Assembly (NCBI GenBank): GCA_045588365.1
Contig: JAZNEB010000013.1
Span: 128,803-192,802 of the forward strand
DNA from: Clostridia bacterium
GTDB lineage: Bacteria > Bacillota > Clostridia > CAKSNL01 > HGM11501
Direction of reading: 5' to 3'
Length of the DNA: 64,000 nucleotides
Made by a program: the position numbers and the translations under genes. Positions 5,650 to 24,688 of the stretch are shown here, piece by piece. Under the pieces are notes generated by a model. The model was not told the origin of the DNA. It saw only the letters and a program-made list of their open reading frames with translations, and did no database searches. How positions within the stretch are numbered: the first letter of the stretch is position 1; each line of letters begins with the position of its first letter.

Positions 5650-5678
5650 AAAAGACACCTTCGGGTGTCTTTTTTTGC
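5650..5678 (+). terminator. Intrinsic terminator
   Basis: aaaagacacc ttcg ggtgtctttttt. Confidence 0.75.
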
Positions 5679-5770
5679 GGTAAAATATCTGAAAATGTTA
5701 TTTTCCTATCTGTTTTTTATGTTTTATGCAAAATTTTTCTGTGTTTTTGTTATTTTTTCTTTGAAAACTA

Positions 5771-5799
5771 TTGATTTTTTTGAAACTATGTAGTATAAT
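5771..5799 (+). promoter_or_regulatory. Sigma-A-type promoter of the GRE-aldolase operon
   Basis: -35 TTGATT (5771-5776), 17-nt spacer, -10 TATAAT (5794-5799). The ORF-track TTG start at 5771 is this -35 box. Confidence 0.5.
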
Positions 5800-5830
5800 T
5801 AAAATTGTCAAAAAATCGGGAGGTTTAAAT

Positions 5831-8362: not shown

Positions 8363-8390
8363 AATAAATAACAACTTAGGAGGATGAGTT

Positions 8391-9335: not shown

Positions 9336-9338
9336 AAA

Positions 9339-9372
9339 TAAGACCCAATGCACTGCATTGGGTCTTATTTTT
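9339..9372 (+). terminator. Intrinsic terminator of the GRE-aldolase operon
   Basis: aagacccaatgca ctg cattgggtctt followed by attttt. Confidence 0.75.
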
Positions 9373-9373
9373 G

Positions 9374-9410
9374 AAAAAGGGAGTGAAACGAAAGTTTCAC
9401 TCCCTTTTAA
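9374..9410 (-). terminator. Intrinsic terminator of the kdgK-eda operon (convergent)
   Basis: gggagtgaaac ... gtttcactccc hairpin with a U-run on the minus strand. Confidence 0.7.
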
Positions 9411-9411
9411 T

Positions 9412-10440
9412 TTATCTCTGCACTCTGCCTGAACCGTCTCCGCCCATTAAGGCTTCAACTTCCTTAACGGTAACTCTGTTAAAGTCGCCTATTATTGTAT
9501 GCTTTAAGCAGCTTGCTGCAACTGCAAATTCAAGAGCCTTCTTGGGATCTTCATAGTTAAGAAGTCCGTAGATAAGACCGCCGCCGAAGCTGTCGCCACC
9601 GCCAACTCTGTCAACGATATCCTTAATTTCATATTTTTTGGAAACGTAGAATTCGTTTCTGTCATAGATGCAGGCAGACCAGTCATTGTGGTTTGCGCTC
9701 TTGCTCTCACGAAGGGTAATGGCAATTTTTGAAGCATTTGGATAAATTGTCAGAACTTCCTTTGCCAAAGCTTCATACTTGGAAGTATCAAGCTTTCCGC
9801 CTGTAACGTCGCTTCCGATTTCAATGCCCAAGGATTTCTGACAGTCTTCTTCGTTTGCGATAATTACGTCAACGTATTTAACAAGCTCTGCCATAACCTC
9901 TTTAGCCTGCTTGCCGTATTTCCAGAGGTTCTTTCTGTAGTTAAGGTCGCAGGAAACTGTAAGTCCCATTTCCTTTGCAGCTTTAACTGCTGCAAGTGAT
10001 ACATCAGCGGCACTCTGGCTTAAAGCGGGAGTGATACCGGTAATGTGGAACCACTGGGCATCAGCAAAGATTTTCTTGAAATCGAAAAGGTCAGGAGTTG
10101 CCATAGCGATAGAGGAATATTCTCTGTCGTAAATAACCTTGGAAGGTCTCTGGTTTGAACCGGTTTCAAGATAGTATGTTCCAAGTCTTCCGTCAGAATA
10201 TACGATGTCGGAAATGTCAATGCCGAAACCGCGAAGCTGGCAGGTAAGAGCGTAGGTAATGTCGTTTTTGGGAATTGCAGTAGCGTACTTAACGTCCATA
10301 CCGTAGTTGGCCAAGGATACAGCAACGTTTGCTTCACCGCCACCGAAGGTAGCCTCAAGCATGGGGGACTGCATAAATCTCTCTAAAGCGGGAGATTTGA
10401 ATCTCAACATAATTTCGCCTAAAGTAACAATCTTTTTCAT
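9412..10440 (-). CDS. kdgK: 2-dehydro-3-deoxygluconokinase (PfkB family)
   Basis: PfkB signatures ([13 protein letters not shown]-terminal, [17 protein letters not shown]-terminal). It is operonic with a KDPG aldolase. Confidence 0.8.
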
Positions 10441-10456
10441 AATAAAAATCCCTTTC

Positions 10457-11413
10457 TTATTTCTGTATAAGGTGAACAGCGAAGCCGCCGAATTCGCCCT
10501 TTATGTATATGAACTTCATAGAACCGTCAGCATTGAAGGTTGCAGTATCCTCTTCAAATTCAACACCCTGGCTCTTTAAGTGGTAAACCGCTCTGTCAAC
10601 AGAGTTTGTCTTAATTGCAATATGGCCGTGAGTTCCCTTGCCCTGGGACTTCATGATTTCCATAATGTCGCCTGCCCAGAAGCTTGAGTTTCCTTCTTTT
10701 GTGGTAAGTCCGCCGAAAAGAACGGAGAACTGGTCTGCCACGGATTTTGAGGTAGCGGCATCGGGGGTATTAACGCCGATATGACCGATGGAGAATCCAA
10801 GCATAACGGAAACTGCCTTCTTTGTAAGCTCTGTAATCTTGTCCCATTCTTCGTTTTCGATAAATTCTTCCTTAACCATGAAGCTTCCGCCGCAAGCTAA
10901 GATTTTCTTGTTTGTGATATATGTAGTTAAGTTGTCAAGACCGATACCGCCTGTGGGAATGAATTTAAGATTTCCGTAGGGTGCGGATAAAGCCTTGATT
11001 TTATCAATTCCGCCGCTCTGCTCAGCAGGGAAGAACTTAACAACCTTAAGGCCTAATTCCAGAGCCTGCTCAATTTCAGAGGGGGATGTGCAGCCGGGAG
11101 TGGGGATTAAGTCGTTTTCCAGACACCAGGAAACAACCTTGGGATTGAAGCCGGGGCTAACGATAAACTTAGCGCCTGCCTCCTTGGCACGCTTTGCCTG
11201 GTCAATGGTTAAAACAGTACCTGCACCAACCAGCATTTCGGGAAAAGCAGAAGAAACTCTTTTAATAGCCTCTTCGGCAGCCTCAGTTCTGAAGGTGATT
11301 TCCGCAATGGGAAGACCGCCGTCAATCAAAGCCTTTGCCAGAGGAACTGCTTTTTCCACATCGTTGATTTTGATAACCGGAACAATACCGATATCGGAAA
11401 TTTTTTTAAGCAT
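10457..11413 (-). CDS. eda: KDPG/KHG aldolase (Eda) fused to a C-terminal VOC/glyoxalase-like domain
   Basis: aa 1-~205 are Eda-like (IVPVIKI ... GAGTVL ... FIVSPG ... KFFPA ... GG). aa ~206-318 form an extra beta-alpha-beta-rich module (HIGVNT ... [24 protein letters not shown] ... [10 protein letters not shown]). Confidence 0.75.
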
Positions 11414-11449
11414 TTAAAACACCTCTTAATATAAATATATTCGTGTAAT

Positions 11450-11478
11450 ATAATACTACAATTTACAAAAATAGTCAA
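11450..11478 (-). promoter_or_regulatory. Sigma-A-type promoter for eda-kdgK
   Basis: Minus strand: -35 TTGACT (11473-11478), 17-nt spacer, -10 TATTAT (11450-11455). Confidence 0.45.
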
Positions 11479-11554
11479 TAGATTATTGCTGATTTTAGAC
11501 AAGAAAAACCGGATTTTTTAATGTTACAAAAACTTATCAAAAGCTAAAAATCTA

Positions 11555-11583
11555 TTGACAGCAGGGCGTATTTGTTATAGAAT
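11555..11583 (+). promoter_or_regulatory. Sigma-A-type promoter for the DUF1292 gene
   Basis: -35 TTGACA (11555-11560), 17-nt spacer, -10 TAGAAT (11578-11583). A 5'-UTR hairpin ccgagg ... cctcgg follows. Confidence 0.5.
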
Positions 11584-11640
11584 TAAAATAACGCAATCCG
11601 AGGAGTCGTTTCCCCTCGGCTATAGAAAAGAGGTATTGTT

Positions 11641-11952
11641 ATGGCAGAGAATAAAAAAGACGAAATTTTAGAAGAATATGAAGAAAGAGTAATCGTTCTT
11701 TACGACCAGGAAGAGGATAAGGACATAAAGTGCGAATGGCTTGACGAAGTGGAATACGAAGGCAGACATTATGCTGTTGTGCTTCCCTTGGATAATGAAG
11801 ACGGAACGGTTATGATTATGGAAATGATTCCCGATGATGATTCTGATGACGATGAAACCTGGCTTTTTGCAGGTGTTGAAGACCAGGAATTGCTGGGCAA
11901 GATTTATGAGCTTTTCAAGGAAGCAAACGCCGAAGAATTTGATTTTGAATAA
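11641..11952 (+). CDS. DUF1292-family small acidic protein
   Basis: Typical DUF1292 layout (short acidic protein with ...D..EYEG..Y.V.LP ... D.. EL....F). Confidence 0.6.
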   Translation: MAENKKDEILEEYEERVIVLYDQEEDKDIKCEWLDEVEYEGRHYAVVLPLDNEDGTVMIMEMIPDDDSDDDETWLFAGVEDQELLGKIYELFKEANAEEFDFE

Positions 11953-12039
11953 AAGAGAATTCTTTTTATAAAAAGGGGAAAAATAAATAAAATTCTCCCT
12001 GCATTTCACGAGAGCGTGCGCACTATTTAAACCAACACA

Positions 12040-12184
12040 TTTATTAAGGGAGTTTCGGAAGATGTCTGTGGCGTGCAGGCCTCCTACGGGGAGGAAGCCC
12101 AGGAGCAGACACAGAGACGCCCACCTGCTTTGGGGCAGGTTTGAATATACGCACAATACGGTTTTTGCGGGGGTAAAAAGAATA
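12040..12184. ncRNA. Candidate structured RNA element; class and strand unassigned
   Basis: A ~100-nt island that looks markedly more GC-rich than the AT-rich spacer around it (by eye). Local hairpins: cctcc-tacgg-ggagg, acctgc-tttggg-gcaggt, and tgtctg/cagaca. A possible closing helix pairs ccctgca (11997-12003) with tgcgggg (12166-12172). It is bounded by terminator-like hairpins on both sides. Confidence 0.3.
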
Positions 12185-12217
12185 AAAAGCCTGTTTCGTG
12201 AGAAACAGGCTTTTTTG
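12185..12217 (+). terminator. Intrinsic terminator (bidirectional in shape)
   Basis: gcctgttt cgtgag aaacaggc flanked by an A-run and a T-run. Confidence 0.75.
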
Positions 12218-12286
12218 TGGTTTTTGTAAAAAAGAAAATGCCACATTTTTTCTTTTTATACAAGTTGTAGAATTTCTCTGAATACA

Positions 12287-12315
12287 TTGACAAAAAAACA
12301 ACAATGTGATAAAAT
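12287..12315 (+). promoter_or_regulatory. Sigma-A-type promoter of the 13-gene dehydrogenase-hdr-flx-frd-fum operon
   Basis: -35 TTGACA (12287-12292), 17-nt spacer, extended -10 TGaTAAAAT (12307-12315). Confidence 0.55.
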
Positions 12316-12379
12316 AAAATAGTATGAATTTGCAGAAAAACAGAGAAAAAGTAATAAAAATATTGAAAGGAATAAAGCT

Positions 12380-13327
12380 ATGAGCAGAAAAATTACCATT
12401 ATCGGAGCGGGAAGTGTAGGTGCTACAATAGCCTATACACTTTCTATGGAAGACTTAGCAAATGAAATTGTTTTGATTGATGTAAACAAGCAAAAGGCAG
12501 AGGGCGAGGTTATGGACATTATCCAGGGAACCTGCTTCCGTGATCCTATTTCCGTTATAACGGGAGATTATGAAGATGCAAAGGATTCCGACATCGTAAT
12601 AATTACCTCTGGAATAGCGAGACAGCCCGGACAGACACGCCTTGAGCTTACACAGACAAATGTGGATATCATAAAAGAAATCACTCCCAAAATTGTAAAG
12701 GTTGCTCCCAAGGCTTTATATGTTGTGGTAAGTAACCCTGTTGATATAATTACCTATGTGTTCACTAAAATTTCGGGTCTTCCCGAAAATCAGATTATAG
12801 GCTCGGGAACCTTACTTGATACTGCAAGACTTCGTTTTGCTCTTTCTGAGCACTTTAATATAGCACAGAAAAACATTCACGCCTATGTTTTCGGCGAGCA
12901 CGGAGATTCTTCCTTTGTACCTTGGTCCTGCACTCAGATATCTGGTGCTATGCTGGATGAATACATCGAGGTTATGACCGAGGCAGGAAGATATAAGGGA
13001 GAGCTTGACAGAGATGCTATGGAGGAGTACGTTCATACATCAGGCGGAGAAATTATAAAATATAAGGGCGCAACCTACTATGCAGTATCTGTGTCCGTAT
13101 GCCGTCTTTGCAGAATGCTTTTGTCTGCATATGATTCCATAAACACCGTATCTTCCATGATGCACGGAGAATACGGACTTTCCGACATTTGCCTGAGCAC
13201 ATTAAGTATAATCGGCCCTGAGGGCGTTAGGGGCAAGATGCCTGTACGACTTACCAATGAAGAACTTGCAAAGCTTCACGAAAGTGCCGAGAAATTAAGA
13301 GAGACCATGAGACATATTAAATTGTAA
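12380..13327 (+). CDS. LDH/MDH-family 2-hydroxyacid dehydrogenase (LDH-type scaffold with Arg at the Q102 specificity position; possibly malate dehydrogenase)
   Basis: IIGAGSVGATIAY Rossmann fold, LDTARLRF (R171) and GEHGDS (H195). The SGIARQPGQTRLEL loop aligns with LDH [13 protein letters not shown] and puts Arg81 at position 102. Confidence 0.8.
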   Translation: MSRKITIIGAGSVGATIAYTLSMEDLANEIVLIDVNKQKAEGEVMDIIQGTCFRDPISVITGDYEDAKDSDIVIITSGIARQPGQTRLELTQTNVDIIKEITPKIVKVAPKALYVVVSNPVDIITYVFTKISGLPENQIIGSGTLLDTARLRFALSEHFNIAQKNIHAYVFGEHGDSSFVPWSCTQISGAMLDEYIEVMTEAGRYKGELDRDAMEEYVHTSGGEIIKYKGATYYAVSVSVCRLCRMLLSAYDSINTVSSMMHGEYGLSDICLSTLSIIGPEGVRGKMPVRLTNEELAKLHESAEKLRETMRHIKL

Positions 13328-13339
13328 GGAAGTGTGAAT

Positions 13340-14134
13340 ATGAATTTCAGTTATTATCCCGGCTGCACCCTTAAAACAAAAGCCAAAGAGCTTGATGTAT
13401 ATGCGAAAAAGTGTGCAGAAGTTCTGGGCTTTACATTAAATGAAATAGACAACTGGCAGTGCTGCGGCGGAGTTTATCCTTTGGGTAAGGATGAAATCGC
13501 AACAAAGCTTTCATCTGTTCGTGTCCTTAATTACGCAAAGGAAAATGGGGAGGATCTTGTTACTGTTTGTTCTGCCTGCCATCATGTAATAAAAAGAGTA
13601 AACGACGATATGAAAAACGATGCTGATATAGCAAAAAAGGCAAATAACTATTTAAGTCTTGACGAGCCTTATAATGGAGAAGCCAATGTTTTTCATTACC
13701 TTGAGGTTTTAAGGGACAAAATTGGTTTTGACAATCTTAAGAAGGCAGTTAAAAATCCTCTTACGGGAAAAAAGATTGGTGCATATTACGGATGCCTCTT
13801 GCTTCGACCCGGAAAGGTTATGGCTTTTGACGATCCTGAAAATCCCACTGTTTTTGAGGACTTCATAAAGGCTCTGGGTGCCGAGGCGGTAGTTTATCCC
13901 TACAGAAACGAATGCTGCGGCGGATATATCCCCGTAAAGGACGATGCTACAAGTGAAAAGATGTGCAAAAAAATCAGCGAAAGCGCAAAGGGCTTTTCAT
14001 GTGATATGTTAATCACTGCTTGTCCCTTATGTATGTATAACTTAAGGAAAAAGGGCATAGATATTCCTGTTTACTATTTTACAGAGCTTTTGGCAGAAGC
14101 TTTGGGAGTAAAGGAGGAAAACATAAATGGATAA
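13340..14134 (+). CDS. hdrB: Heterodisulfide reductase subunit B-like protein (two CCG domains)
   Basis: YYPGC start and two CCG motifs (NWQCCGG, NECCGG), each followed by downstream CxxC-type cysteines. ATG 13340 follows AAGGAAG. Confidence 0.75.
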   Translation: MNFSYYPGCTLKTKAKELDVYAKKCAEVLGFTLNEIDNWQCCGGVYPLGKDEIATKLSSVRVLNYAKENGEDLVTVCSACHHVIKRVNDDMKNDADIAKKANNYLSLDEPYNGEANVFHYLEVLRDKIGFDNLKKAVKNPLTGKKIGAYYGCLLLRPGKVMAFDDPENPTVFEDFIKALGAEAVVYPYRNECCGGYIPVKDDATSEKMCKKISESAKGFSCDMLITACPLCMYNLRKKGIDIPVYYFTELLAEALGVKEENING

Positions 14135-14510
14135 GAATGTAAAAGAAAAGGTAATGGAATTAAGCGGAATAAATACTTCTAAGTGTATGAAGTGCGGAAA
14201 ATGCTCAGCTACATGTCCTGCCTTTGATGAAATGGATATAAAGCCCCATATGTTTGTGTCATATGTTGAAAAGGGAAACGTTAAGGCACTTTCCGAGAGC
14301 AATGGTATTTACCGTTGTCTTTCGTGCTTTGCCTGTGTTGAACGTTGCCCCAGGGGGGTTGAACCCGGAAAAGTTATTGACGCTGTAAGACAGATGATCA
14401 TAAGAGAAAAAGGAATGGACTATTTTAAGGCGGATGAAGTACCCGCTTTAGCTGATGAAGATACTCCTCAGCAGCTTTTGGTAAGTGCATTCAGAAGATT
14501 CAGGAGGTGA
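14127..14510 (+). CDS. hdrC: Heterodisulfide reductase subunit C-like 4Fe-4S protein
   Basis: CMKCGKCSATCP and CLSCFACVERCP ferredoxin motifs. It overlaps the hdrB stop. Confidence 0.7.
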   Translation: MDKNVKEKVMELSGINTSKCMKCGKCSATCPAFDEMDIKPHMFVSYVEKGNVKALSESNGIYRCLSCFACVERCPRGVEPGKVIDAVRQMIIREKGMDYFKADEVPALADEDTPQQLLVSAFRRFRR

Positions 14511-14514
14511 AACT

Positions 14515-16503
14515 ATGCAGAGAATCGGTGTATTTGTATGCCATTGCGGAAGTAACATTGCCGCAACGGTTGACGTAAAAAAGGTTGTAGAAGTAATTAA
14601 AGAAGAACCCGGTGTTGTTCATGCCGAGGATTATGCATATATGTGCTCCGAGGCAGGACAGGCTTTGATAGCAGGGGCAATTAAAGAAAAAAATCTTACG
14701 GGTATTGTTGTTTGCTCCTGCTCTCCCAGAATGCATGAGGCTACATTCAGAAAGGCAGCTCTTCGTGCAGGAATAAACCCCTACATGGTGGAAATAGCCA
14801 ACATAAGAGAGCATTGTTCATGGATTCATAAGGATATAGAGGAAGCAACAGAGAAGGCTGTTATTTTGGCTCGTGCTGCAGTTGCTAAGGTGAATTTGAA
14901 TACTCCTTTGCAACCCGGAGAAAGCCTTGTTACAAAAAGAGCTTTGGTAATAGGTGGCGGTATTGCCGGAATTCAGACAGCTCTTGATATTGCCGATGCA
15001 GGATATGAGGTGGATATAGTAGAAAAGACTCCCTCTATCGGCGGAAGAATGTCCCAGCTTGATAAAACCTTCCCCACACTTGACTGTTCCGCTTGTATTC
15101 TGACTCCCAAAATGGTGGAAGCGGCAGCCCACGAGAAAATCACAATTTATACCTACAGTGAAGTAGATAAGGTTTCAGGATTTGTCGGGGACTTTACGGT
15201 AGATATTAAAAAGAAGGCAAGAAGTGTGGATATGACAAAGTGTACAGGATGTGGCGTTTGTCAGGAAAAATGCCCCTCTAAAAAGGCTCCCAGCGAGTTT
15301 AACAGAGGTCTTAATTTAAGAAGTGCCATCTACACTCCTTTTGCTCAGGCTATTCCCAATGTTCCTGTTATTGACAGGGATTCGTGCATAAAGTTCAAGA
15401 CAGGAAAGTGCGGAATTTGTGAAAAGGTTTGTCAGGCAAAGGCAATAGATTATAACCAGACTGATGAAATTATCACACAGAAATACGGCGCTATTGTGGT
15501 TGCCACAGGCTTTGATATGATAAAGCTTGATAAGTACGGCGAATATGCATATAACGAAAGCAAGGATGTTATAACTTCTTTAGAACTTGAAAGAATTATG
15601 AATGCGGCAGGTCCTACCAAGGGTCATCTGGAGAGACTTTCTGACGGAAAAGCTCCAAAGGAAATGGTATTCATTCAGTGCGTGGGAAGTAGATGCTCCG
15701 ACGACAGGGGAAAGAGCTACTGCTCTAAAATCTGCTGTATGTATACAGCAAAACACGCTATGCTCATAAAGGATAAATATCCTGACGTAAATGTAACTGT
15801 TTTCTATATAGATGTAAGAACTCCCGGTAAAAACTTTGACGAGTTTTACAGAAGAGCAGTTGAAGAATACGGCGTAAATTATATAAAGGGTCAGGTGGGC
15901 AAGGTTTGCCCCGAGCCTGACGGAAGCTTACTTGTTAACGGTGTTGATTTAATAAGCAATGAGCAGATAAAAATAAAGGCTGATATGGTTGTGCTTGCAG
16001 CGGCAATAGAGCCTGAGGAATCTGTGAGAGGTATCGCTACAATGCTTACTGCAAGCATTGATACAAATAACTTCTTAACAGAAGCACATCCCAAGCTTCG
16101 TCCTGTAGAGTCTCCCACAGCAGGAGTATTTTTATCAGGCGTGTGTCAGGGACCTAAGGATATTCCCGAAACTGTTGCCCAGGCAGGTGCTGCGGCAGTT
16201 AAGGCTATAGGTTTACTTGCTAAAGATAAGCTTATGACAAATCCCTGTACAGCCAAGGCAGACGAGCTTATGTGTAACGGCTGCGGAAACTGCGCAAAGG
16301 TTTGTCCTTACGGTGCTATTTCCTACGAAACAAAGCTTATAAACGACCACGGAATAAAGGAAGAGAGAAGAATTGCCGTAGTAAACAATGCTCTTTGTCA
16401 GGGCTGCGGTGCTTGTACTGTAACCTGTCCTTCAGGCTCTATGGACCTTCAGGGCTTCTCTAACAGACAAATATTAGCGGAGGTGGATGCAATATGCCGA
16501 TAA
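14515..16503 (+). CDS. hdrA: Heterodisulfide reductase subunit A-like flavoprotein (FAD plus multiple Fe-S clusters)
   Basis: GGGIAGIQTALDIADAGYEV dinucleotide fold, N-terminal CHCGSN cysteines, and CTGCGVCQEKCP, CGICEKVCQ, CNGCGNCAKVCP and CQGCGACTVTCP motifs. AGGAGG lies before ATG 14515. Confidence 0.8.
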   Translation: MQRIGVFVCHCGSNIAATVDVKKVVEVIKEEPGVVHAEDYAYMCSEAGQALIAGAIKEKNLTGIVVCSCSPRMHEATFRKAALRAGINPYMVEIANIREHCSWIHKDIEEATEKAVILARAAVAKVNLNTPLQPGESLVTKRALVIGGGIAGIQTALDIADAGYEVDIVEKTPSIGGRMSQLDKTFPTLDCSACILTPKMVEAAAHEKITIYTYSEVDKVSGFVGDFTVDIKKKARSVDMTKCTGCGVCQEKCPSKKAPSEFNRGLNLRSAIYTPFAQAIPNVPVIDRDSCIKFKTGKCGICEKVCQAKAIDYNQTDEIITQKYGAIVVATGFDMIKLDKYGEYAYNESKDVITSLELERIMNAAGPTKGHLERLSDGKAPKEMVFIQCVGSRCSDDRGKSYCSKICCMYTAKHAMLIKDKYPDVNVTVFYIDVRTPGKNFDEFYRRAVEEYGVNYIKGQVGKVCPEPDGSLLVNGVDLISNEQIKIKADMVVLAAAIEPEESVRGIATMLTASIDTNNFLTEAHPKLRPVESPTAGVFLSGVCQGPKDIPETVAQAGAAAVKAIGLLAKDKLMTNPCTAKADELMCNGCGNCAKVCPYGAISYETKLINDHGIKEERRIAVVNNALCQGCGACTVTCPSGSMDLQGFSNRQILAEVDAICR

Positions 16504-16934
16504 CAAATGAAGAATTCAGACCTAAAATAGTGGCATTTTGCTGCAACTGGTGTTCTTATGCAGGTGCTGACCTGGCAGGAAGCAGCAGACTTTCCTACAG
16601 TGCAGATGTAAAAATCATAAGAGTGCCCTGCTCCTGCAGAGTTAATCCTATGTTTATCTTAAGGGCCTTTGAAAAAGGTGCTGACGGTGTAATTATCTGC
16701 GGTTGCCACCCCGGGGACTGCCATTATTCCACGGGCAACTACTATGCAAGACGCAGAATGACTCTTTTATTCTCAATGCTTGACTTTTTAGGCATTGAAA
16801 GAGGCAGAACCAGAGTTGAATGGGTTTCTGCTGCGGAGGGTGTTAAATTCTCCCAGACAATGACAGAGTTTGTGGATACAATTAAATCTCTGGGTAAAAA
16901 CAAAAGATTGGAGGACTTAAGATGCAAAGACTGA
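16494..16934 (+). CDS. MvhD/FlxD-like 2Fe-2S electron-transfer protein
   Basis: FCCNWCSYAGADLAG ... RVPCSCRV ... GCHPGDCHY signature. It overlaps the hdrA stop. Confidence 0.8.
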   Translation: MPITNEEFRPKIVAFCCNWCSYAGADLAGSSRLSYSADVKIIRVPCSCRVNPMFILRAFEKGADGVIICGCHPGDCHYSTGNYYARRRMTLLFSMLDFLGIERGRTRVEWVSAAEGVKFSQTMTEFVDTIKSLGKNKRLEDLRCKD

Positions 16935-17887
16935 TAAAAAGAGCAAAAGAGCTCATTAAAAGCGGTGAAGTAGATAGAGTCCTCGGCTGGAAAATGGGGG
17001 ATTTAGGCTATAACCCCGAACCTTATATGTTTGAAAGTGAAGAGGCTCTTGACAGTTTTTTATATGACGGATTTTCTGGAGCAAACCTCAGCAAATTTAT
17101 GATAGAGGCATCCAAAAAAGAGGGTAAGACTTTGGTTTTCTTAAAGCCCTGCGATACCTACAGCTTTAATCAGCTTATAAAAGAAAACAGAGTTATAAGA
17201 GAAAAAGCTTATATCATAGGTGTAGGCTGCAAAGGAAAACTCGACATTGAAAAAATAAAAGCCAAGGGAATTACAGGCATTACTAAAGTAGAGGGATGCG
17301 AAGAATTCTCGGAAAATGATGAACTTAAAATCACCACTCTTTACGGCGAGGAAAAAGCATCTTATAAAGAAAACCTTTTGGGAAGATGCTATATGTGTAA
17401 AGGAAAAGAGCACAGAATTTATGAAGAAGTAATAGGAGAGAGCATGGATACCAAGACTTCAGAGAGATTTTCTGAAGTTGAAAAAATCGAAGCCATGACT
17501 CCCGAAGAAAGATTTGCGTTTTTCAAAAGCGAGCTTTCTAAGTGTATCCGCTGTAACGCCTGCAGAAATGTGTGCCCTGCCTGCTCTTGCAGAAAGTGTG
17601 TATTCGATTCTGAAAAGTTTGATTCATCACAGAAAGCAAATTCCGATTCCTTTGAAGAAAAGATGTTCCATATAATAAGATCTTTCCATGTGGCCGGAAG
17701 ATGCACAGACTGCGGAGAATGCAGTCGTGTATGCCCCCAGGGAATTCCCTTATATCTTTTCAACAAGAAGTTTATTAAAGATATTGACACCTACTATGGT
17801 GAATATAACGCAGGTGAAAACATTGAAGATGAAGCTCCTTTAACAAGCTTTACCTTTGATGATTTAGAGCCGGGGGAAAGGAGATAA
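16922..17887 (+). CDS. 4Fe-4S dicluster protein, FlxC-like
   Basis: CIRCNACRNVCPAC and CTDCGECSRVCP motifs in the C-terminal half. It overlaps the mvhD-like stop. Confidence 0.5.
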   Translation: MQRLIKRAKELIKSGEVDRVLGWKMGDLGYNPEPYMFESEEALDSFLYDGFSGANLSKFMIEASKKEGKTLVFLKPCDTYSFNQLIKENRVIREKAYIIGVGCKGKLDIEKIKAKGITGITKVEGCEEFSENDELKITTLYGEEKASYKENLLGRCYMCKGKEHRIYEEVIGESMDTKTSERFSEVEKIEAMTPEERFAFFKSELSKCIRCNACRNVCPACSCRKCVFDSEKFDSSQKANSDSFEEKMFHIIRSFHVAGRCTDCGECSRVCPQGIPLYLFNKKFIKDIDTYYGEYNAGENIEDEAPLTSFTFDDLEPGERR

Positions 17888-17891
17888 AGCT

Positions 17892-18920
17892 ATGAAAAAG
17901 ACGAATAAAAGTAATCTTTCCAAAATTTTCGCATTTATAAGCGAAAAAGAAGAGCTTTATGTTCCTTCTAAAATCGGAAGCGGAACTAATTTCGCTCTCT
18001 TTCAGGATGAAGTTTCGGTAGATTTGGAGACCCTTAAGACAGTTAAGTCTCCTAAGGATATATTCTTCCCTCAGTGTGAAAATTTATACTCCTGCACCAA
18101 AGAAGAGGGCAAAATGAAAATCACTCCCGAGGACCTTAAAGCCCGTGATTTCGTGGTTTTCGGTATGCGTGGTTGCGACCTTAAGGGAATGGAGGTTTTA
18201 GATAAGGTTTTCTTATCTGAGCCCGTTGACTCTTTCTATGCATCAAGAAGGAGCCACGGAACCATCGTTACTTTAGCTTGTGCAAAGCCTTCCGAATCCT
18301 GCTTCTGCTCTGTTTTCGGAATTGATGCGGCGGCACCTTCAGGTGATGTGGAAGCATTTATGATAGAAGATGAAATCTTCTTTGATGCAAAGAGCAAAAA
18401 GGGTGAAGAGCTCTTAGCTTTAATAGCTGAGTTTTTGGAAGATGCAGATGAAAATAAGGTAGAAAAAGAAAAGGAAAAAATCCGTGAAATTATAAAAAAG
18501 CTTCCCTATGCAAATCTTTCTTTAGAGGGATGGAACGGGGACGCTACAGAGGAAAAGTTTGATTCTCCTATTTGGGAAGAACTTTACAAGGGCTGTCTTG
18601 CCTGCGGAACCTGTACTTTTTCCTGCCCTACCTGTCAGTGCTATGACATAAAGGACTATGATACGGGAAAAGGCGTTATGCGTTACCGCTGCTGGGACTC
18701 CTGTATGTATTCTGACTTTACTATGATGGCTCACGGCAATAACAGAACAAGTCAGATGCAGCGTTTCCGTCAGAGATTTATGCATAAGCTGGTGTATTTC
18801 CCGAAAAACAACGACGGAATGTACTCCTGCGTAGGCTGCGGAAGATGTGTTGACAGATGTCCTTCCTCACTTAATATAGTGAAGGTAATAAAAGCTTTCG
18901 GAAAGGACGGTAATAAGTAA
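17892..18920 (+). CDS. 4Fe-4S protein, FlxB / AsrA / sulfhydrogenase-beta-like
   Basis: CLACGTCTFSCPTC and CVGCGRCVDRCP motifs. Length and layout resemble AsrA. Confidence 0.6.
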   Translation: MKKTNKSNLSKIFAFISEKEELYVPSKIGSGTNFALFQDEVSVDLETLKTVKSPKDIFFPQCENLYSCTKEEGKMKITPEDLKARDFVVFGMRGCDLKGMEVLDKVFLSEPVDSFYASRRSHGTIVTLACAKPSESCFCSVFGIDAAAPSGDVEAFMIEDEIFFDAKSKKGEELLALIAEFLEDADENKVEKEKEKIREIIKKLPYANLSLEGWNGDATEEKFDSPIWEELYKGCLACGTCTFSCPTCQCYDIKDYDTGKGVMRYRCWDSCMYSDFTMMAHGNNRTSQMQRFRQRFMHKLVYFPKNNDGMYSCVGCGRCVDRCPSSLNIVKVIKAFGKDGNK

Positions 18921-19774
18921 TGTGCGAATGTAACTGCCATGATAAATATTATGAGGATGTTTTAATTCCGAAGGTTGGAATCATAACCGATATAAAGGAG
19001 CAGACTCCCGATGTTAAAACCTTCAGGGTAAATGCTCCGGGCGGCGGAAAGCTCTTTGAGCATAAGAGCGGTCAGTGTGCCATGGTGTGCGCTCCGGGTG
19101 TAGGAGAGGGTATGTTTTCCATAACAAGCTCTCCCACAAATACCGAATATCAGGAATTCAGCATTAAAAAATGCGGAAAATTAACAGATTATCTTCACTC
19201 CCTTTCTGTAGGCAGTGAAATTGCTGTAAGAGGCCCCTACGGAAATCATTTCCCCGTGGACAGCGAATTAAAGGGGAAAGACCTTCTCTTTATAGCAGGC
19301 GGTATAGGTTTTGCCCCCTTACGTTCGGTTATAAATTATGTCTTTGATAAAAGAGAAGACTACGGCAAGGTTGATATTTTATACGGTTCCAGAAGTAAAG
19401 AGGACTTGGTTGGTCTTGACGAGATAGAAAACGTATGGAAAAATAAGAAGGATACAAATGTGTACCTTACCATTGACCGTGAGCAGGAAAACTGGGACGG
19501 ACACGTGGGCTTTGTTCCCTCTTATCTTAAGGAAATCGGCTTTGACAACAATAAAACCGTTTTGGTTTGCGGACCTCCCATTATGATTAAATTTGTTCTT
19601 CAGGCTTTAATTGAACTGGGTTTTTCGAAAGAGCAGGTTTATACAACATTGGAGCTTCGTATGAAATGCGGAGTAGGAAAATGCGGAAGATGCAACATTG
19701 GTTCAAAGTATGTTTGTAAAGACGGACCCGTATTTCGTTGCGACGAAATTGACGAGTTACCCGATGAATATTGA
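18920..19774 (+). CDS. FAD/NAD(P)H-binding 2Fe-2S oxidoreductase, FlxA / AsrB / PyrK / sulfhydrogenase-gamma-like
   Basis: Ferredoxin-reductase fold (FSITSSP, LFIAGGIGFAPL, VLVCGPPIM) plus C-terminal CGVGKCGRC. The start overlaps the preceding stop (TAATG). Confidence 0.7.
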   Translation: MCECNCHDKYYEDVLIPKVGIITDIKEQTPDVKTFRVNAPGGGKLFEHKSGQCAMVCAPGVGEGMFSITSSPTNTEYQEFSIKKCGKLTDYLHSLSVGSEIAVRGPYGNHFPVDSELKGKDLLFIAGGIGFAPLRSVINYVFDKREDYGKVDILYGSRSKEDLVGLDEIENVWKNKKDTNVYLTIDREQENWDGHVGFVPSYLKEIGFDNNKTVLVCGPPIMIKFVLQALIELGFSKEQVYTTLELRMKCGVGKCGRCNIGSKYVCKDGPVFRCDEIDELPDEY

Positions 19775-19789
19775 TAAGGAGGTCATATA

Positions 19790-20464
19790 ATGGAAAACAT
19801 GGTAAATATATATTTATACGGCAAAAAATACTCTGTACCTTCAGAACTTACCATTATGACTGCTATGGAGTATGCAGGCTATACCTTAAAGAGAGGTTGC
19901 GGCTGCCGCCACGGTTTTTGCGGAGCTTGTGCCACAATTTACCGTATAAAAGGACAAAATGAATTAAAGACCTGTCTTGCCTGTCAGACACAGGTTCAGG
20001 AGGGAATGTATATAGCAAGCATTCCGTTCTTCCCCACGGACAAGAGAACTTACAGCATAGATGAAATCCGTCCCGATGCAAAGGTTATGATGGAGCTTTA
20101 TCCTGAAATATACAGCTGTATCGGATGTAACGCCTGCACAAAGGCTTGCACCCAGAGTCTTAACGTTATGCAGTATATTGCTTATGCACAGAGAGGCGAC
20201 TTTGAAAAGTGTGCAGAGGAGTCCTTTGACTGTGTAGGCTGCGGCTGCTGTTCTGTTCGTTGCCCTGCAGGTATTTCTCATCCAATGGTGGGACTTTTAT
20301 CAAGAAGACTTACAGGTAAATATATCGCTCCCGAATGTGAGCATCTTGAAGAAAGAGTTGAAGAGGTTAATAAGGGCGAATTTGATGAGCTTATTGAAAA
20401 GATTATGCAAAAGCCCATAACAGAGATGAAAGAGCTTTACAACTCAAGAGATATCGAGAAATAA
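19790..20464 (+). CDS. SdhB/FrdB-like iron-sulfur subunit (2Fe-2S plus two cubane sites)
   Basis: N-terminal CGCRHGFCGAC ... C, then CIGCNACTKAC and CVGCGCCSVRCP. AGGAGG RBS. Confidence 0.65.
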   Translation: MENMVNIYLYGKKYSVPSELTIMTAMEYAGYTLKRGCGCRHGFCGACATIYRIKGQNELKTCLACQTQVQEGMYIASIPFFPTDKRTYSIDEIRPDAKVMMELYPEIYSCIGCNACTKACTQSLNVMQYIAYAQRGDFEKCAEESFDCVGCGCCSVRCPAGISHPMVGLLSRRLTGKYIAPECEHLEERVEEVNKGEFDELIEKIMQKPITEMKELYNSRDIEK

Positions 20465-20475
20465 GGAGGGATAAT

Positions 20476-22068
20476 ATGTTTACAGAAAAAATGCTTGAAT
20501 CAATAAAAAAAGTTGAAGCTACAAGAGAAGAAAGAATGAAGACTGAGCCCAGACGTATGACAGCAGAAGAAAAGGAAGAGCTTCTTAAGGCATATCATCC
20601 CGATTTCAGAGAAGATGGATTTTCTGAAATTAAGATAGGGCCCAATAAGGGAGAAAAAGCGCCCCGCGAACTTTGCGAGCTTTTATCCTCAAACAGCCGT
20701 ATTTTAGGACAGGATATAGACCTTTCAAAGGTTGACTATGACGTTGACGTTCTGGTTATAGGCGGCGGCGGTGCAGGCTCTTCGGCGGCAATCGAGGCTA
20801 AAAGAGCGGGAGCAGACGTAATGATAGTTACAAAGCTTCGTATAGGCGACGCCAATACCATGATGGCAGAGGGCGGTATTCAGGCAGCTGACAAGCCTAA
20901 CGACTCTCCCGTTCAGCACTATCTGGATGCTTTCGGCGGTGGTCATTTTGCAGCTCGTCCCGAGCTACTCCGCCGTCTGGTTATGGAAGCTCCCGATGCT
21001 ATCAAGTGGCTCAGCGACCTTGGTGTTATGTTCGATAAGGATAAAGACGGAAATATGGTTACAACCCACGGCGGCGGAACTTCAAGAAAGAGAATGCACG
21101 CAGCCAAGGACTATTCCGGTGCTGAAATCATGAGAACTCTTCGTGATGAAGTTATAAACTTAAAGATTCCCGTAGTGGAATTTACTTCGGCGATAGAGCT
21201 TATAAAAGATGAAAACGGTCTTGTTGCAGGTGCGGTGCTTCTTAATATGGAAACAGACGAGCTTTTGATAGCAAAGGCTAAAACCGTAATTATAGCAACA
21301 GGCGGTGCGGGAAGACTTCACTATCAGAATTTCCCCACATCAAACCATTACGGAGCAACGGCAGACGGACTTATTTTAGGTTACAGAGCGGGAGCACCCT
21401 TGCTTTATCAGGATACCATTCAGTATCATCCGACGGGTGTTGCATTTCCCTCTCAGATTTTCGGTGCACTGGTAACTGAAAAGGTAAGATCACTTGGTGC
21501 GATGCTTGTAAATAAAGACGGCGAAGCTTATGCTCATCCCTTGGAGACAAGAGACGTTTCCGCTTCTGCAATTATCCGTGAATGTGCAAACGGAAAAGGT
21601 GTTGACACACCTTTGGGCAGCGGCGTATGGCTTGATACTCCCATGATAGAAATTCTCCACGGGGAGGGAACAATCGAGAAGAGAATTCCCGCCATGATGA
21701 GAATGTATTTAAACTACGGTATAGATATGAGAAAAGAACCTATTTTGGTATATCCCACACTTCACTACCAGAACGGTGGTCTTGAAATCGGAGGCGAAGG
21801 CTTTACAAAGACTATTCCTAACCTTCTTGTTGCAGGTGAGGCTGTTGGCGGTATTCACGGAAGAAACAGACTTATGGGTAACTCACTTTTGGATATCATC
21901 GTATTCGGCAGAAATGCAGGTAAGGCTGCAGCTAAGAAAGCGGGAGAGGTAGCACTCGGCAAGATGACACTTTCCCACATTGACGAATATGCAAAAGAGC
22001 TCGAAAAAGCAGGTCTTGATACCGGAAAAGTATCTCCCTTGCTTTTACCTGACTACAAAAGAAAGTGA
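20476..22068 (+). CDS. SdhA/FrdA-family flavoprotein (soluble fumarate-reductase-like; NadB-like not excluded)
   Basis: VIGGGGAGSSAA FAD fold. Dicarboxylate-site motifs QYHPTG, ETRDV, LHYQNGG and HGRNRLMGNSL are present. Asn replaces the covalent-FAD His (ANTMMAEGG). Confidence 0.7.
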   Translation: MFTEKMLESIKKVEATREERMKTEPRRMTAEEKEELLKAYHPDFREDGFSEIKIGPNKGEKAPRELCELLSSNSRILGQDIDLSKVDYDVDVLVIGGGGAGSSAAIEAKRAGADVMIVTKLRIGDANTMMAEGGIQAADKPNDSPVQHYLDAFGGGHFAARPELLRRLVMEAPDAIKWLSDLGVMFDKDKDGNMVTTHGGGTSRKRMHAAKDYSGAEIMRTLRDEVINLKIPVVEFTSAIELIKDENGLVAGAVLLNMETDELLIAKAKTVIIATGGAGRLHYQNFPTSNHYGATADGLILGYRAGAPLLYQDTIQYHPTGVAFPSQIFGALVTEKVRSLGAMLVNKDGEAYAHPLETRDVSASAIIRECANGKGVDTPLGSGVWLDTPMIEILHGEGTIEKRIPAMMRMYLNYGIDMRKEPILVYPTLHYQNGGLEIGGEGFTKTIPNLLVAGEAVGGIHGRNRLMGNSLLDIIVFGRNAGKAAAKKAGEVALGKMTLSHIDEYAKELEKAGLDTGKVSPLLLPDYKRK

Positions 22069-22077
22069 GGCAAGGCA

Positions 22078-23232
22078 ATGGATACACTTATTTCCTGGTT
22101 TACAGAATCAATAATGGGAAATTCCCTTATGATAGCTTTTTTAATTCTGTCTCTTGGCTATATCATAGGCAGCATAAAAATAGCGGGACTTGAGCTTGGA
22201 ACGGCAGGAGTGCTTTTGGTCGCTCTCGTTTTCGGCCATTTCGGATATAGCGTTCCCTCGGTTGTGGGAGATTTGGGACTTATAGCCTTTGTTACATCAG
22301 TTGGCTTTATTGCAGGCCCTAAATTTTTCAGAAATTTCAAGGTAAATGCAAAATCCTATATACTTCTTGGTATAATCATAATCGCCGCAGGAAGCCTTGC
22401 GACTATAGGTGTTATAAAAATATTTAATATTCCTACAGACATTTCCGTGGGTATGATGGCAGGTGCGCTTACAAGCACTCCCGGTCTCGGTGCAGCAATC
22501 GAAGCAACTGGCTCCGACCTTGCATCGGTAGGCTACGGAATAGCATATCCTTTTGGAGTTATCGGCGTTGTGCTTTTTGTTCAGCTCATTCCGAAAATTC
22601 TCAAAATTGACATTGATAAGGAAAAGGAAAAGTTTGAAGCGGCATCCGGCGTGGAAGTAAAGGAAGAAAATAAAAAGCTTTTCTGTCTTGATTCTTTCGG
22701 GTTTGGTGCTTTTGCAATCGCTGTTGTAATTGGAATTATACTTGCGAAAATCACAATTCCTCTGCCCGGCGGAACAAGCTTTGCTCTTGGTACATCAGGC
22801 GGTCCTTTAATAGCAGGTCTTATAATGGGACACTTTGGAAATCTTGGCAGAGTATCCTTGAAGGTAAAGAAAACTGTTCTTGAATCACTTCGTGAATTCG
22901 GTCTTGCACTTTTCTTAATGGGTGCAGGCATAAAGGGCGGAGCAGGCTTTGTTGACACTTTAGCACAGCACGGAGCAATGCTTTTCGTTTACGGTGCGAT
23001 AATTACTCTTGTGCCTATGCTTATCGGATATTTCTTTGCAGCAAAGGTGCTGAAGCTTTCTGTATTCAATAACCTTGGCTCAATATGCGGTGGTATGACA
23101 TCAACACCTGCCCTTGGTACTTTGGTAAAGGTTACAAAAACCGATGACGTGGCATCGGCCTATGCGGCAACCTATCCCGTTGCCCTGGTTTTGGTGGTGC
23201 TTACCTGTCAGTTTATCGGAAAATTCTTATAA
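22078..23232 (+). CDS. AAEx-family (YidE/YbjL/AspT/SucE-like) transporter lacking the central TrkA-C domains
   Basis: Two homologous ~170-aa membrane halves (GLELGTAGVLLVAL... and the second-half repeat) are joined by a short charged linker (DIDKEKEKFEAASGVEVKEENKK). Confidence 0.6.
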   Translation: MDTLISWFTESIMGNSLMIAFLILSLGYIIGSIKIAGLELGTAGVLLVALVFGHFGYSVPSVVGDLGLIAFVTSVGFIAGPKFFRNFKVNAKSYILLGIIIIAAGSLATIGVIKIFNIPTDISVGMMAGALTSTPGLGAAIEATGSDLASVGYGIAYPFGVIGVVLFVQLIPKILKIDIDKEKEKFEAASGVEVKEENKKLFCLDSFGFGAFAIAVVIGIILAKITIPLPGGTSFALGTSGGPLIAGLIMGHFGNLGRVSLKVKKTVLESLREFGLALFLMGAGIKGGAGFVDTLAQHGAMLFVYGAIITLVPMLIGYFFAAKVLKLSVFNNLGSICGGMTSTPALGTLVKVTKTDDVASAYAATYPVALVLVVLTCQFIGKFL

Positions 23233-23247
23233 TAAAGGAGAAACACT

Positions 23248-24090
23248 ATGCGTGAAATAAATGTTGCTCTTATAACGGATGTGGTTGAAAAGCTCTGTAT
23301 TGAAGCAAATAATCATCTTCCCTCCGACGTAAAATGTGCCATCAAAAAGTGCAGAAGTGAGGAAGACGGAGAAATTGCAAAGGGCATTTTGGATAACATC
23401 ATCGAAAATTTTGACATAGCAGATGCAGAAGATGTTCCTGTTTGTCAGGATACAGGTATGGCTTGTGTATTTCTGGAAATCGGTCAGGATGTACACCTTA
23501 CGGGCGGCGACTTAAGGGAAGCCGTTGACGAGGGTGTAAGACGAGGCTACGACAAGGGCTATTTAAGAAAGTCCGTTGTGGCTGACCCCGTGAGACGAGG
23601 TAATACCGGAGATAACACTCCTGCTATGTTATATACCGAAATCGTTCCCGGTGAAAATGTAAAAATCACTGTTGGTCCCAAGGGATTCGGCAGTGAAAAC
23701 ATGAGCATGATAAGAATGTTCAAGCCTTCAGCAGGTCTTCAGGGTATCAAGGACTTTATCCTGGAGGTTGTTGAAACCGCAGGCCCAAATCCCTGCCCTC
23801 CCATGGTAATCGGTGTTGGTATCGGCGGAACCTTTGATAAGTGTGCACTTTTAGCAAAGAAAGCTTTGATGAGAAGCTTAGATTCTGAAAATCCCGATCC
23901 TTACTATGCCGACCTTGAAAAGGAAATGCTCGAAAAGGTTAACAAGCTTGGTATAGGTCCTCAGGGCTTTGGTGGAAAGACCACAGCCATCGGCCTTAAT
24001 ATTGAAACTCTGCCCACACACATTGCGGGAATGCCCTGTGCAGTAAATATAAACTGCCATGTAACCCGTCATAAGTCGGAGGTGATATAA
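23248..24090 (+). CDS. Class I Fe-S hydro-lyase alpha subunit (fumarate hydratase; tartrate dehydratase TtdA-type not excluded)
   Basis: VCQDTGMA motif and the N-terminal-domain layout of two-subunit class I fumarases. Confidence 0.8.
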   Translation: MREINVALITDVVEKLCIEANNHLPSDVKCAIKKCRSEEDGEIAKGILDNIIENFDIADAEDVPVCQDTGMACVFLEIGQDVHLTGGDLREAVDEGVRRGYDKGYLRKSVVADPVRRGNTGDNTPAMLYTEIVPGENVKITVGPKGFGSENMSMIRMFKPSAGLQGIKDFILEVVETAGPNPCPPMVIGVGIGGTFDKCALLAKKALMRSLDSENPDPYYADLEKEMLEKVNKLGIGPQGFGGKTTAIGLNIETLPTHIAGMPCAVNINCHVTRHKSEVI

Positions 24091-24647
24091 TGGAAAAGCA
24101 CATTACTCTTCCTTTAACAAAGGAGCTTGCAAAAACATTAAAAGCAGGGGACAAGGTTTATCTTACAGGAACCATTTATACCTCCCGTGATGCAGGACAT
24201 AAAAGAATGTGCGAAGCACTGGAAAGAGGGGAGAGCCTTCCCTTTGACCCCACCGATGCCACAATCTATTATGTAGGTCCCACTCCTGCAAAGCCAGGAA
24301 AGGTAATCGGCTCTGCAGGTCCTACCACCAGCGGAAGAATGGACGCTTATGCTCCTACAATGATGAAGGTTGGAGCAAGAGGTATGATAGGAAAGGGAGC
24401 TCGTCTTCCCGAAGTAATAGAGGCTATGAAGGAAAATTCAGGCGTTTACTTCGGTGCTATCGGCGGAGCAGGTGCACTTTTAGCCAAGTGCATTAAAAAG
24501 TGCGAGCTTATCGCATATGAAGACCTTGGTGCAGAAGCACTCCGTAAGCTCTATGTTGAAGATATGCCTCTGGTTGTAATTATCGATTCTGAGGGCAATA
24601 ACTTATACGAGCTTGGCAGAAAAGAATATCTGGAAAACAGAAAATAA
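24090..24647 (+). CDS. Class I Fe-S hydro-lyase beta subunit (fumarate hydratase beta)
   Basis: GTIYTSRDAGHKR and GPTTSGRMD motifs. The start overlaps the alpha stop (TAATG). Confidence 0.8.
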   Translation: MEKHITLPLTKELAKTLKAGDKVYLTGTIYTSRDAGHKRMCEALERGESLPFDPTDATIYYVGPTPAKPGKVIGSAGPTTSGRMDAYAPTMMKVGARGMIGKGARLPEVIEAMKENSGVYFGAIGGAGALLAKCIKKCELIAYEDLGAEALRKLYVEDMPLVVIIDSEGNNLYELGRKEYLENRK

Positions 24648-24688
24648 AAAAATGCAGACATACGGCGGTATGTCTGCATTTTTTTTGT
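24645..24688 (+). terminator. Intrinsic terminator ending the 13-gene operon
   Basis: atgcagacata cggcgg tatgtctgcat followed by T8. Confidence 0.8.

Follow-up and report, generated by a model that had tools for sequence, protein, structure and literature searches.

A 64,000-nucleotide stretch of a Clostridia bacterium genome (assembly GCA_045588365.1, contig JAZNEB010000013.1, positions 128,803-192,802 of the forward strand; here called the window, with positions counted from its first letter) carries a row of 13 plus-strand genes, the ninth and tenth of which encode an iron-sulfur protein and a flavoprotein of the fumarate reductase type, designated FrdB' and FrdA'. The host genome measures 1.98 Mb and is 92% complete, and genome-wide absences reported below stand for "not found" and are no proof of absence.

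Neighbouring genes in the row are separated by at most 15 nucleotides or overlap. With these short gaps, one strong promoter-like site and one terminator, positions 12287-24685 make up a single predicted operon, composed as follows.

12287-12315, plus strand: promoter-like site of the operon, TTGACA and TAAAAT with a 17-nucleotide spacer and TG ahead of the second hexamer (11 of 12 matches, the best in the region)
12380-13327, plus strand: mdh, malate/lactate dehydrogenase family (Ldh_1_N 151.9 bits, Ldh_1_C 87.9 bits)
13334-14134, plus strand: HdrB-like protein with two Pfam CCG stretches, the ten cysteines of both CCG motifs visible in the translation
14127-14510, plus strand: HdrC-like 2x[4Fe-4S] protein with Fer4_8 and Fer4_17 dicluster domains
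14485-16503, plus strand: HdrA, presumed bifurcating flavoprotein of 672 amino acids with flavin adenine dinucleotide (FAD) and iron-sulfur sites (NCBIfam HdrA2 787.8 bits over residues 13-670; Pfam Pyr_redox_2 and Fer4)
16494-16934, plus strand: MvhD/FlxD-like protein (Pfam FlpD 183.1 bits)
16922-17887, plus strand: FlxC-like iron-sulfur protein with a C-terminal 4Fe-4S dicluster domain
17892-18920, plus strand: FlxB-like iron-sulfur protein of the AsrA/HydB type (Fer4_22 103.4 bits; NCBIfam ShyB 189 and AsrA 150 bits, both under cut-off)
18920-19774, plus strand: FlxA-like NAD(P)H-binding flavoprotein with a 2Fe-2S site (NAD_binding_1, FAD_binding_6, DHODB_Fe-S_bind; NCBIfam matches of the HydG/AsrB type)
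19790-20464, plus strand: FrdB', 224 amino acids, with one 2Fe-2S and two 4Fe-4S motifs and a helical C-terminal tail of about 60 amino acids
20476-22068, plus strand: FrdA', 530 amino acids, with an intact fumarate site, Asn127 at the covalent-FAD position, an 89-amino-acid N-terminal extension and no C-terminal domain
22078-23232, plus strand: AAEx-family transporter, likely a succinate exporter (Asp-Al_Ex 254.8 bits; eight hydrophobic segments)
23248-24090, plus strand: class I fumarate hydratase alpha subunit (NCBIfam PRK06246 416 bits, over cut-off; Pfam Fumerase)
24090-24647, plus strand: class I fumarate hydratase beta subunit (NCBIfam PRK06842 298.4 bits, over cut-off; Pfam Fumerase_C)
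24646-24685, no strand assigned: operon terminator, a palindromic 18-pair hairpin flanked by A and T runs (from a terminator scan that lists it on the minus strand; symmetric, with T runs on both sides)

For the HdrB-like protein the best NCBIfam matches were MFR SdhE (145.7 bits) and HdrB (133.5 bits), both under cut-off, and the N-terminal half of the FlxC-like protein matched no Pfam family. The divergent region that precedes the operon ends, immediately ahead of the promoter, in a 14-pair bidirectional terminator-like hairpin at 12184-12215.

The flavoprotein FrdA' and its partner FrdB'

Both reading frames lie where the first-pass annotation of the window had placed them, and the five motifs it had named (QYHPTG, ETRDV, LHYQNGG, HGRNRLMGNSL and ANTMMAEGG) all occur in the 530-amino-acid product. 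Residues were mapped with HMMER alignments to solved structures and with a MAFFT alignment that included FrdA, SdhA and NadB of Escherichia coli, the sequences coming from the annotated K-12 record. The dicarboxylate site proved to be intact, as had been claimed, with H318, T320, E335, R338, R359, H430 and R465 matching the dicarboxylate-binding and proton-transfer residues of the E. coli enzymes. The replacement of the FAD-linking histidine by asparagine was likewise borne out, since in the alignment Asn127 occupies the place of His44 in E. coli FrdA and of His45 in SdhA. Asn127 and the seven catalytic positions, eight in all, were invariant in all of the 100 family members gathered from other genomes.

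The asparagine at the FAD site is, judged by the alignments, not by itself diagnostic of a soluble enzyme, because the whole clade has it, including relatives with a cytochrome b anchor gene (see below). Blaut and colleagues are said to have found in 1989 that E. coli FrdA variants without the covalent FAD link still reduce fumarate and barely oxidise succinate, a behaviour that fits a one-way reductase.

The flavoprotein had also been described as short. Its length of 530 amino acids stands, and the description can now be refined to a core of about 400 amino acids that is preceded by an 89-amino-acid N-terminal extension and has lost the C-terminal domain. The FAD_binding_2 domain spans residues 91-471, and the extension ahead of it is without counterpart in the canonical enzymes. 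Beyond residue 490 and the last helix of the FAD domain there are only about 41 residues, as against 130-190 in canonical enzymes and, among these, 130-187 in E. coli SdhA, FrdA and NadB and 165-187 in the E. coli complex II flavoproteins, and no Pfam match to Succ_DH_flav_C (PF02910) was found in FrdA'. The extension is kept in relatives down to 50% identity, with the motifs E..R..R, HPD and GPN.G, and it is modeled by AlphaFold with a predicted local distance difference test score (pLDDT) of 93-98; it matched no Pfam family.

FrdA' reaches no curated NCBIfam cut-off. The highest score was obtained with the TfrA equivalog NF004900 (339.9 bits against a cut-off of 718, over profile positions 6-426 of 546), followed by the Sdh/Frd models at about 276 bits (TIGR01812, 275.5 bits, cut-off 567.3), NadB (TIGR00551, 263 bits, cut-off 452.75) and flavo_cyto_c (TIGR01813, 205.3 bits, cut-off 285.45).

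Relatives for phylogeny were taken from a search of 1.84 billion cluster representatives and labelled by NCBIfam scans, and a maximum-likelihood tree was computed by a quick method from 65 core sequences, with support values from the Shimodaira-Hasegawa-like approximate likelihood ratio test (SH-aLRT). The clade that contains FrdA' comprises 20 representatives (support 96), of which ten have 480-550 amino acids and carry the N-terminal extension, and ten have about 400-415 amino acids and lack it. Outside this clade lie the NadB clade (99), a clade (99) with the E. coli proteins FrdA and SdhA, and the TfrA and PRK07803 groups; the TfrA representative P0209 belongs to a different clade. The short sister clade (P0164, P0169, P0174, P0181, P0191, P0193, P0200, P0205, P0216 and P0225) has neither extension nor C-terminal domain; most of its members retain the fumarate-site residues, and Asn or Lys occupies the position of the FAD-linking histidine. 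Two extension-clade members, P0129 and P0136, come from marine Gammaproteobacteria/Thiotrichales metagenome-assembled genomes and from Prochlorococcus sp. MIT 1201, and are annotated only as "FAD-binding protein". These records indicate that the extension family reaches well beyond the Clostridia. Identity of the representatives P0122, P0129 and P0136 is 44-58%.

The first-pass annotation had named a position inside the L-aspartate oxidases as the placement that would speak against a fumarate reductase. A tree in which FrdA' was grouped with the seven NadB rows was rejected by the approximately unbiased (AU) test, with a log likelihood lower by 135 (p 5e-5). No match to NadA (PF02445) was found in the host genome, while a control search found NadA in 12 of 14 known genomes. 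FrdA' is the sole full-length FAD_binding_2 protein in the host genome, and this, together with the failure to find NadA, makes a role in NAD synthesis unlikely. The NadB reading was rejected on the family score, the tree position, the AU test and the NadA search taken together.

FrdB' contains the SdhB-like 2Fe-2S motif and the two cubane motifs that had been claimed for it, and a check of the cluster ligands found three cysteine groups in the order of SdhB (C39/44/47/65, C110/113/116/120 and C148/151/154/158). All 12 cysteines were invariant in 93 sequences, and the groups align with the 2Fe-2S group and the two cubane groups of E. coli FrdB and SdhB. The third group, C-x2-C-x2-C-x3-C-P, has four cysteines and its E. 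coli counterparts three, from which a second 4Fe-4S cluster is predicted where complex II has a 3Fe-4S cluster facing its quinone site. FrdB' scored 20.2 bits against the SdhB family (cut-off 88), and its C-terminal tail matched no Pfam family. Foldseek searches with the whole FrdB' model gave template modeling (TM) scores of 0.25-0.31, the two domains being oriented unlike those of solved chains, and it was the domain-wise alignment that was informative.

One representative of 727 amino acids, P0124, is a natural FrdB'::FrdA' fusion, in which residues 1-222 are 38% identical to FrdB' of the window and the FrdA' part is 54% identical. The fusion supports a physical B-A complex with the C-terminus of B beside the N-terminal extension of A.

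Host genome and conservation of the locus

In agreement with the first-pass annotation, no membrane anchor gene was found in the operon, the AAEx transporter being the sole hydrophobic product. An anchor encoded elsewhere, the other finding that the annotation had named as telling against its proposal, was not found in the host genome either. No Sdh_cyt match exceeded the cut-off of 25.8 bits, two weak ones reaching 15.2 and 14.5 bits; the b558 anchor family and Ni_hydr_CYTB gave no match; and tblastn with E. coli FrdC, FrdD, SdhC and SdhD gave no match below E 0.5 in the same genome. A hidden membrane anchor was therefore rejected, as neither a family match over cut-off nor a tblastn match below E 0.5 was obtained.

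The menaquinone gene menA was not found in the host genome. RnfC (522.8 bits) was present, and a GTP-dependent phosphoenolpyruvate (PEP) carboxykinase (545 bits) is encoded outside the operon. A second RnfC-like frame (214.7 bits), which lies on the minus strand outside the window at G000:C11:56279-57760, contains four in-frame TAG codons and may be a pseudogene, or TAG may be specially read in that gene.

The occurrence of the pair was followed in a scan that covered one genome per prokaryotic species, in which at least 592 stretches encode a relative, and synteny was determined from the best 80. These are 77-95% identical and belong to Oscillospirales and Lachnospirales, both metagenome-assembled genomes and isolates, with Blautia schinkii, Porcincola intestinalis and Ohessyouella blattaphilus among the carriers. 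The order hdrB-hdrC-hdrA-mvhD-flxC-flxB-flxA-frdB-frdA-(transporter)-fumA-fumB was kept in all of the best 80 loci long enough to show it. The mdh gene occupied the equivalent position in 32 of the 80, that is, in many of those whose contig extends that far. In an even sample of 400 genomes from the same phylum, a full-length relative bearing the extension was present in about 43, roughly one in nine.

In 20 more distant loci (50-74% identity) frdB' always lay directly upstream of frdA', and the partners differed. The full operon was present in unchanged order in two of the 20. Two others, in complete genomes (loci L124 and L128 of G059, and L125 and L129 of G085; FrdA' 59-60% identical), have the order frdB-frdA-hdrB-hdrC-hdrA-mvhD-flxC-flxB-flxA, with the reductase pair first in the gene row and not last. 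The linkage of frdB'-frdA' to the Hdr/Flx genes thus survives rearrangement. Three of the 20 combine Hdr genes and MvhD with other large iron-sulfur flavoproteins, four carry a cytochrome b gene described in the last section, and in nine no recognisable partner lay nearby. Fumarase genes were present in the same stretch in four of the nine, and pyruvate carboxylase adjoined the pair in one.

At locus L120 (positions 2125-19545, minus strand), one of the three with other large flavoproteins, frdB'-frdA' is situated between Hdr-type genes and three genes for 2-oxoacid:ferredoxin oxidoreductase. The Hdr-type genes are hdrC, hdrB and hdrA, together with genes for a 1092-amino-acid HdrA-like iron-sulfur flavoprotein and a 472-amino-acid protein without Pfam match. 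A DctM transporter (of the dicarboxylate TRAP, or tripartite ATP-independent periplasmic, type) and malic enzyme are encoded upstream, and no FlxA or FlxB homologues were found at the locus.

The proposed reaction and its alternatives

A "succinate operon" in Pseudoclostridium thermosuccinogenes (CDQ83_RS03315-03365) comprises genes for one fumarase, seven Flx-Hdr proteins, two fumarate reductase subunits and a putative succinate transporter. It is co-regulated, with expression rising about 4-fold when CO2 is limiting, and has been suggested to link the reduction of fumarate to that of ferredoxin (PMC7282089, where a preprint by Koendjbiharie and van Kranenburg 2019, doi 10.20944/preprints201912.0288.v1, is cited). 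The same composition is found in the window, where frdB-frdA is contiguous with seven hdr/flx genes and the operon includes fumarate hydratase and a putative succinate transporter. The two systems share, in gene content, this parts list, the GTP-dependent PEP carboxykinase and the proposed NADH-driven function. In the window, by contrast, two separate genes at the 3' end encode the fumarase, mdh opens the operon, and the host is an uncultured gut Clostridium of the Oscillospirales type. The idea itself was thus already proposed in 2019-2020, and the arrangement is common in gut Clostridia.

For the operon of the window, we consider it probable that FrdB'A' carries out NADH:fumarate reduction via Flx-Hdr, with bifurcation to ferredoxin, in a cytoplasmic multi-subunit enzyme encoded by this one operon. 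The claim of the first-pass annotation, namely a soluble fumarate reductase fed by the Hdr/Flx iron-sulfur chain and not by quinol, is supported at the level of sequence by the intact catalytic residues, by the failure to find an anchor gene or menA, and by a linkage kept in 80 species.

In the proposed mechanism FlxA, with its FAD and 2Fe-2S site, would oxidise NADH, and FlxB, FlxC and FlxD/MvhD would relay the electrons to the HdrA-bound FAD. HdrA would split the electron pair, sending one electron uphill through its ferredoxin-type domains to free ferredoxin and the other downhill through HdrC and the CCG clusters of HdrB to FrdB', with its two 4Fe-4S clusters and one 2Fe-2S cluster. The non-covalently bound FAD of FrdA' would receive electrons from FrdB' and convert fumarate into succinate. 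Overall, 2 NADH, oxidised ferredoxin and fumarate would yield 2 NAD+, reduced ferredoxin and succinate. Fumarate could be supplied by the malate dehydrogenase and the two-subunit fumarase of the operon from oxaloacetate, which would come from the GTP-dependent PEP carboxykinase encoded elsewhere in the genome, and succinate would probably leave through the AAEx transporter, whose family we take to include the succinate exporter SucE of Corynebacterium. The Rnf complex could turn the reduced ferredoxin into an ion gradient, and a quinone-free organism would in this way gain energy from fumarate reduction.

With potentials of -320 mV for NADH, +30 mV for fumarate/succinate and about -400 to -500 mV for ferredoxin, the proposed bifurcating reaction would be strongly favourable. 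It is comparable to the crotonyl-CoA-dependent bifurcation of Bcd-Etf.

Several points weigh against this assignment. The carrier order, the docking of FrdB' on HdrB/HdrC and the bifurcation are all deduced from the gene set. The structural models are of single chains, and a contact of FrdB' with HdrB or HdrC is therefore presumed; the presence of HdrA hints at bifurcation but does not prove it. Literature searches turned up no biochemical data on any family member, and the absences come from a genome that is 92% complete. Finally, the lack of nearby Hdr/Flx genes in nine of the 20 distant relatives suggests that the pair can work with other donors.

Second in rank, and unlikely, is a non-bifurcating NADH:fumarate reductase, in which Flx and Hdr would be a mere wire from NADH to FrdB'A' and no ferredoxin would be reduced. 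The gene set would allow such a wire equally well. The NADH-dependent fumarate reductase of Hydrogenobacter thermophilus is said to have five subunits, Hdr-like ones among them. As a soluble multi-subunit enzyme it provides a precedent (Miura et al. 2008, as cited in PMC13147460). However, a full 672-amino-acid HdrA with ferredoxin-type domains was kept together with MvhD in 80 of 80 loci, which would be costly for a wire alone, and a host with Rnf and without detectable quinone synthesis would gain energy only if ferredoxin were reduced. Moreover, added H2 abolished succinate formation in P. thermosuccinogenes, an effect read by the authors as ferredoxin coupling (PMC7282089).

It is rather improbable that two independent enzymes share the operon, FrdB'A' being fed directly by reduced ferredoxin or a small carrier while Flx-Hdr reduces another acceptor. 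The nine distant pairs without Hdr/Flx genes are in line with such an independence, and two of them adjoin only a small HdrC-like ferredoxin gene. On the other hand, the Hdr/Flx linkage held in two gene orders and 80 species, and the operon has no gene for another candidate acceptor such as DsrC.

A split thiol:fumarate reductase has less in its favour still and appears very unlikely. Flx-Hdr would here reduce a disulfide, and HdrB together with FrdB'A' would re-oxidise the thiol, as TfrAB does with the thiols of coenzyme M (CoM-SH) and coenzyme B (CoB-SH). TfrA is indeed the top curated family for FrdA' (339.9 bits), and TfrB has matches in two products of the operon, FrdB' corresponding to its N-terminus and the HdrB-like protein to its CCG part. 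Against this, the single CCG protein of the operon would have to both make and consume the thiol, the Tfr scores are far under their cut-offs (718 and 385), and no thiol cofactor genes were seen in the operon. That the flavoprotein is an L-aspartate oxidase, or a reductase of another enoate such as urocanate or methacrylate, is the least credible of these readings, given the missed NadB cut-off, the separate clade, the AU test and the failed NadA search, an operon that also encodes an iron-sulfur partner, fumarase, Mdh and a transporter of the dicarboxylate type, and the invariance of both dicarboxylate-binding arginines and both histidines.

The bifurcating assignment has parallels in other systems. 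TfrAB of methanogens provides a precedent for CCG clusters that feed an iron-sulfur chain leading to a fumarate-reducing FAD, with the parts fused. FrdB'A' resembles TfrAB in that the enzyme is soluble, that the B subunit has one 2Fe-2S and two 4Fe-4S motifs, and that CCG-type clusters feed the chain; the TfrA representative also lacks the FAD-linking histidine, with Gly at that site. Unlike TfrA, FrdA' belongs to another clade, has an N-terminal extension and lacks a C-terminal domain, and the CCG clusters are on a separate HdrB-like protein and not fused to the B subunit. From E. coli FrdABCD and SdhABCD the system differs in that it has no covalent-FAD histidine, no C-terminal domain, four cysteines in the third motif, and no anchor or menA found. 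The soluble flavocytochrome c3 fumarate reductases of Shewanella (Fcc3/Ifc3) and yeast Osm1 differ as well, since FrdA' has no haem domain and receives its electrons via a separate iron-sulfur subunit.

In Desulfovibrio vulgaris the disulfide acceptor of the NADH dehydrogenase/heterodisulfide reductase FlxABCD-HdrABC was reportedly proposed to be DsrC. The seven kinds of subunit of that system are shared by the operon of the window (Ramos et al. 2015, as cited in PMC7282089), in which, however, the gene order is inverted and the fumarate reductase pair stands in place of the disulfide acceptor. Bifurcation had also been proposed for the tubeworm symbiont Ca. Endoriftia persephone and for Thioflavicoccus mobilis, both of which carry tfrAB-flxABCD-hdrABC-korABCD clusters (PMC6315080), and a 2026 survey still terms this a suggestion (PMC13147460). 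Compared on gene content, these clusters likewise have an AB-type fumarate reductase interspersed with Flx-Hdr genes, and locus L120 has 2-oxoacid:ferredoxin oxidoreductase genes as well. The symbiont and Thioflavicoccus clusters serve autotrophic carbon fixation by the reverse tricarboxylic acid (TCA) cycle, whereas the present operon would serve fermentation.

Succinate is a major fermentation product in the gut, and many Clostridia are without quinones and without a classical membrane-bound fumarate reductase. If the proposal is true, flavin-based electron bifurcation would gain a new class in which fumarate serves as high-potential acceptor, and the complex would explain how such bacteria gain energy from the reductive branch of the TCA cycle. 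The hypothesis is open to direct testing, as strains such as Blautia schinkii and Porcincola intestinalis are cultivable carriers, and CRISPRi tools are available for P. thermosuccinogenes (PMC9044749).

Relatives with other electron-input modules

Tentatively, and with a little less than even confidence, we suggest that FrdB'A' may be a portable fumarate-reducing head, forming a clade of its own with an N-terminal extension, Asn at the FAD site and no C-terminal domain, and plugged into Flx-Hdr, into other Hdr modules or into a ferredoxin::di-haem cytochrome b module; the Flx-Hdr form would be bifurcating and would give quinone-free gut Clostridia energy-conserving fumarate reduction via Rnf. 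What is added here to the earlier proposal is the placement of FrdA' in its own clade, the rejection of NadB, the description of the FrdB' domains, and the notion of one head with varied electron-input modules, including the ferredoxin::cytochrome b.

The last of these modules is encoded in four of the 20 distant loci, in which frdA' is followed immediately downstream by a gene for a fusion protein, a 2x[4Fe-4S] domain joined to a membrane domain of the cytochrome b561 type (PF01292). No match to this gene was found in the host genome. The protein has about 328 amino acids with eight conserved cysteines and four conserved histidines, and FrdA' at these loci is 50-54% identical to that of the window. 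The genes are located as follows.

L107, 3981-4967, minus strand: ferredoxin::cytochrome b gene, followed by aconitase and isocitrate dehydrogenase genes
L106, about 4074-4964, minus strand: ferredoxin::cytochrome b gene
L108, about 4049-4933, minus strand: ferredoxin::cytochrome b gene
L111, about 4878-5801, plus strand: ferredoxin::cytochrome b gene

Besides the host, one further genome of the Flx-Hdr type was searched for menA and the gene was not found there, a small sample of related genomes. Where the ferredoxin::cytochrome b gene is present, menA was found in three of four genomes, the numbers again being small and the genomes related. As far as can be read from its domains, the ferredoxin::di-haem cytochrome b fusion could be an undescribed type of anchor for a complex II-like enzyme.

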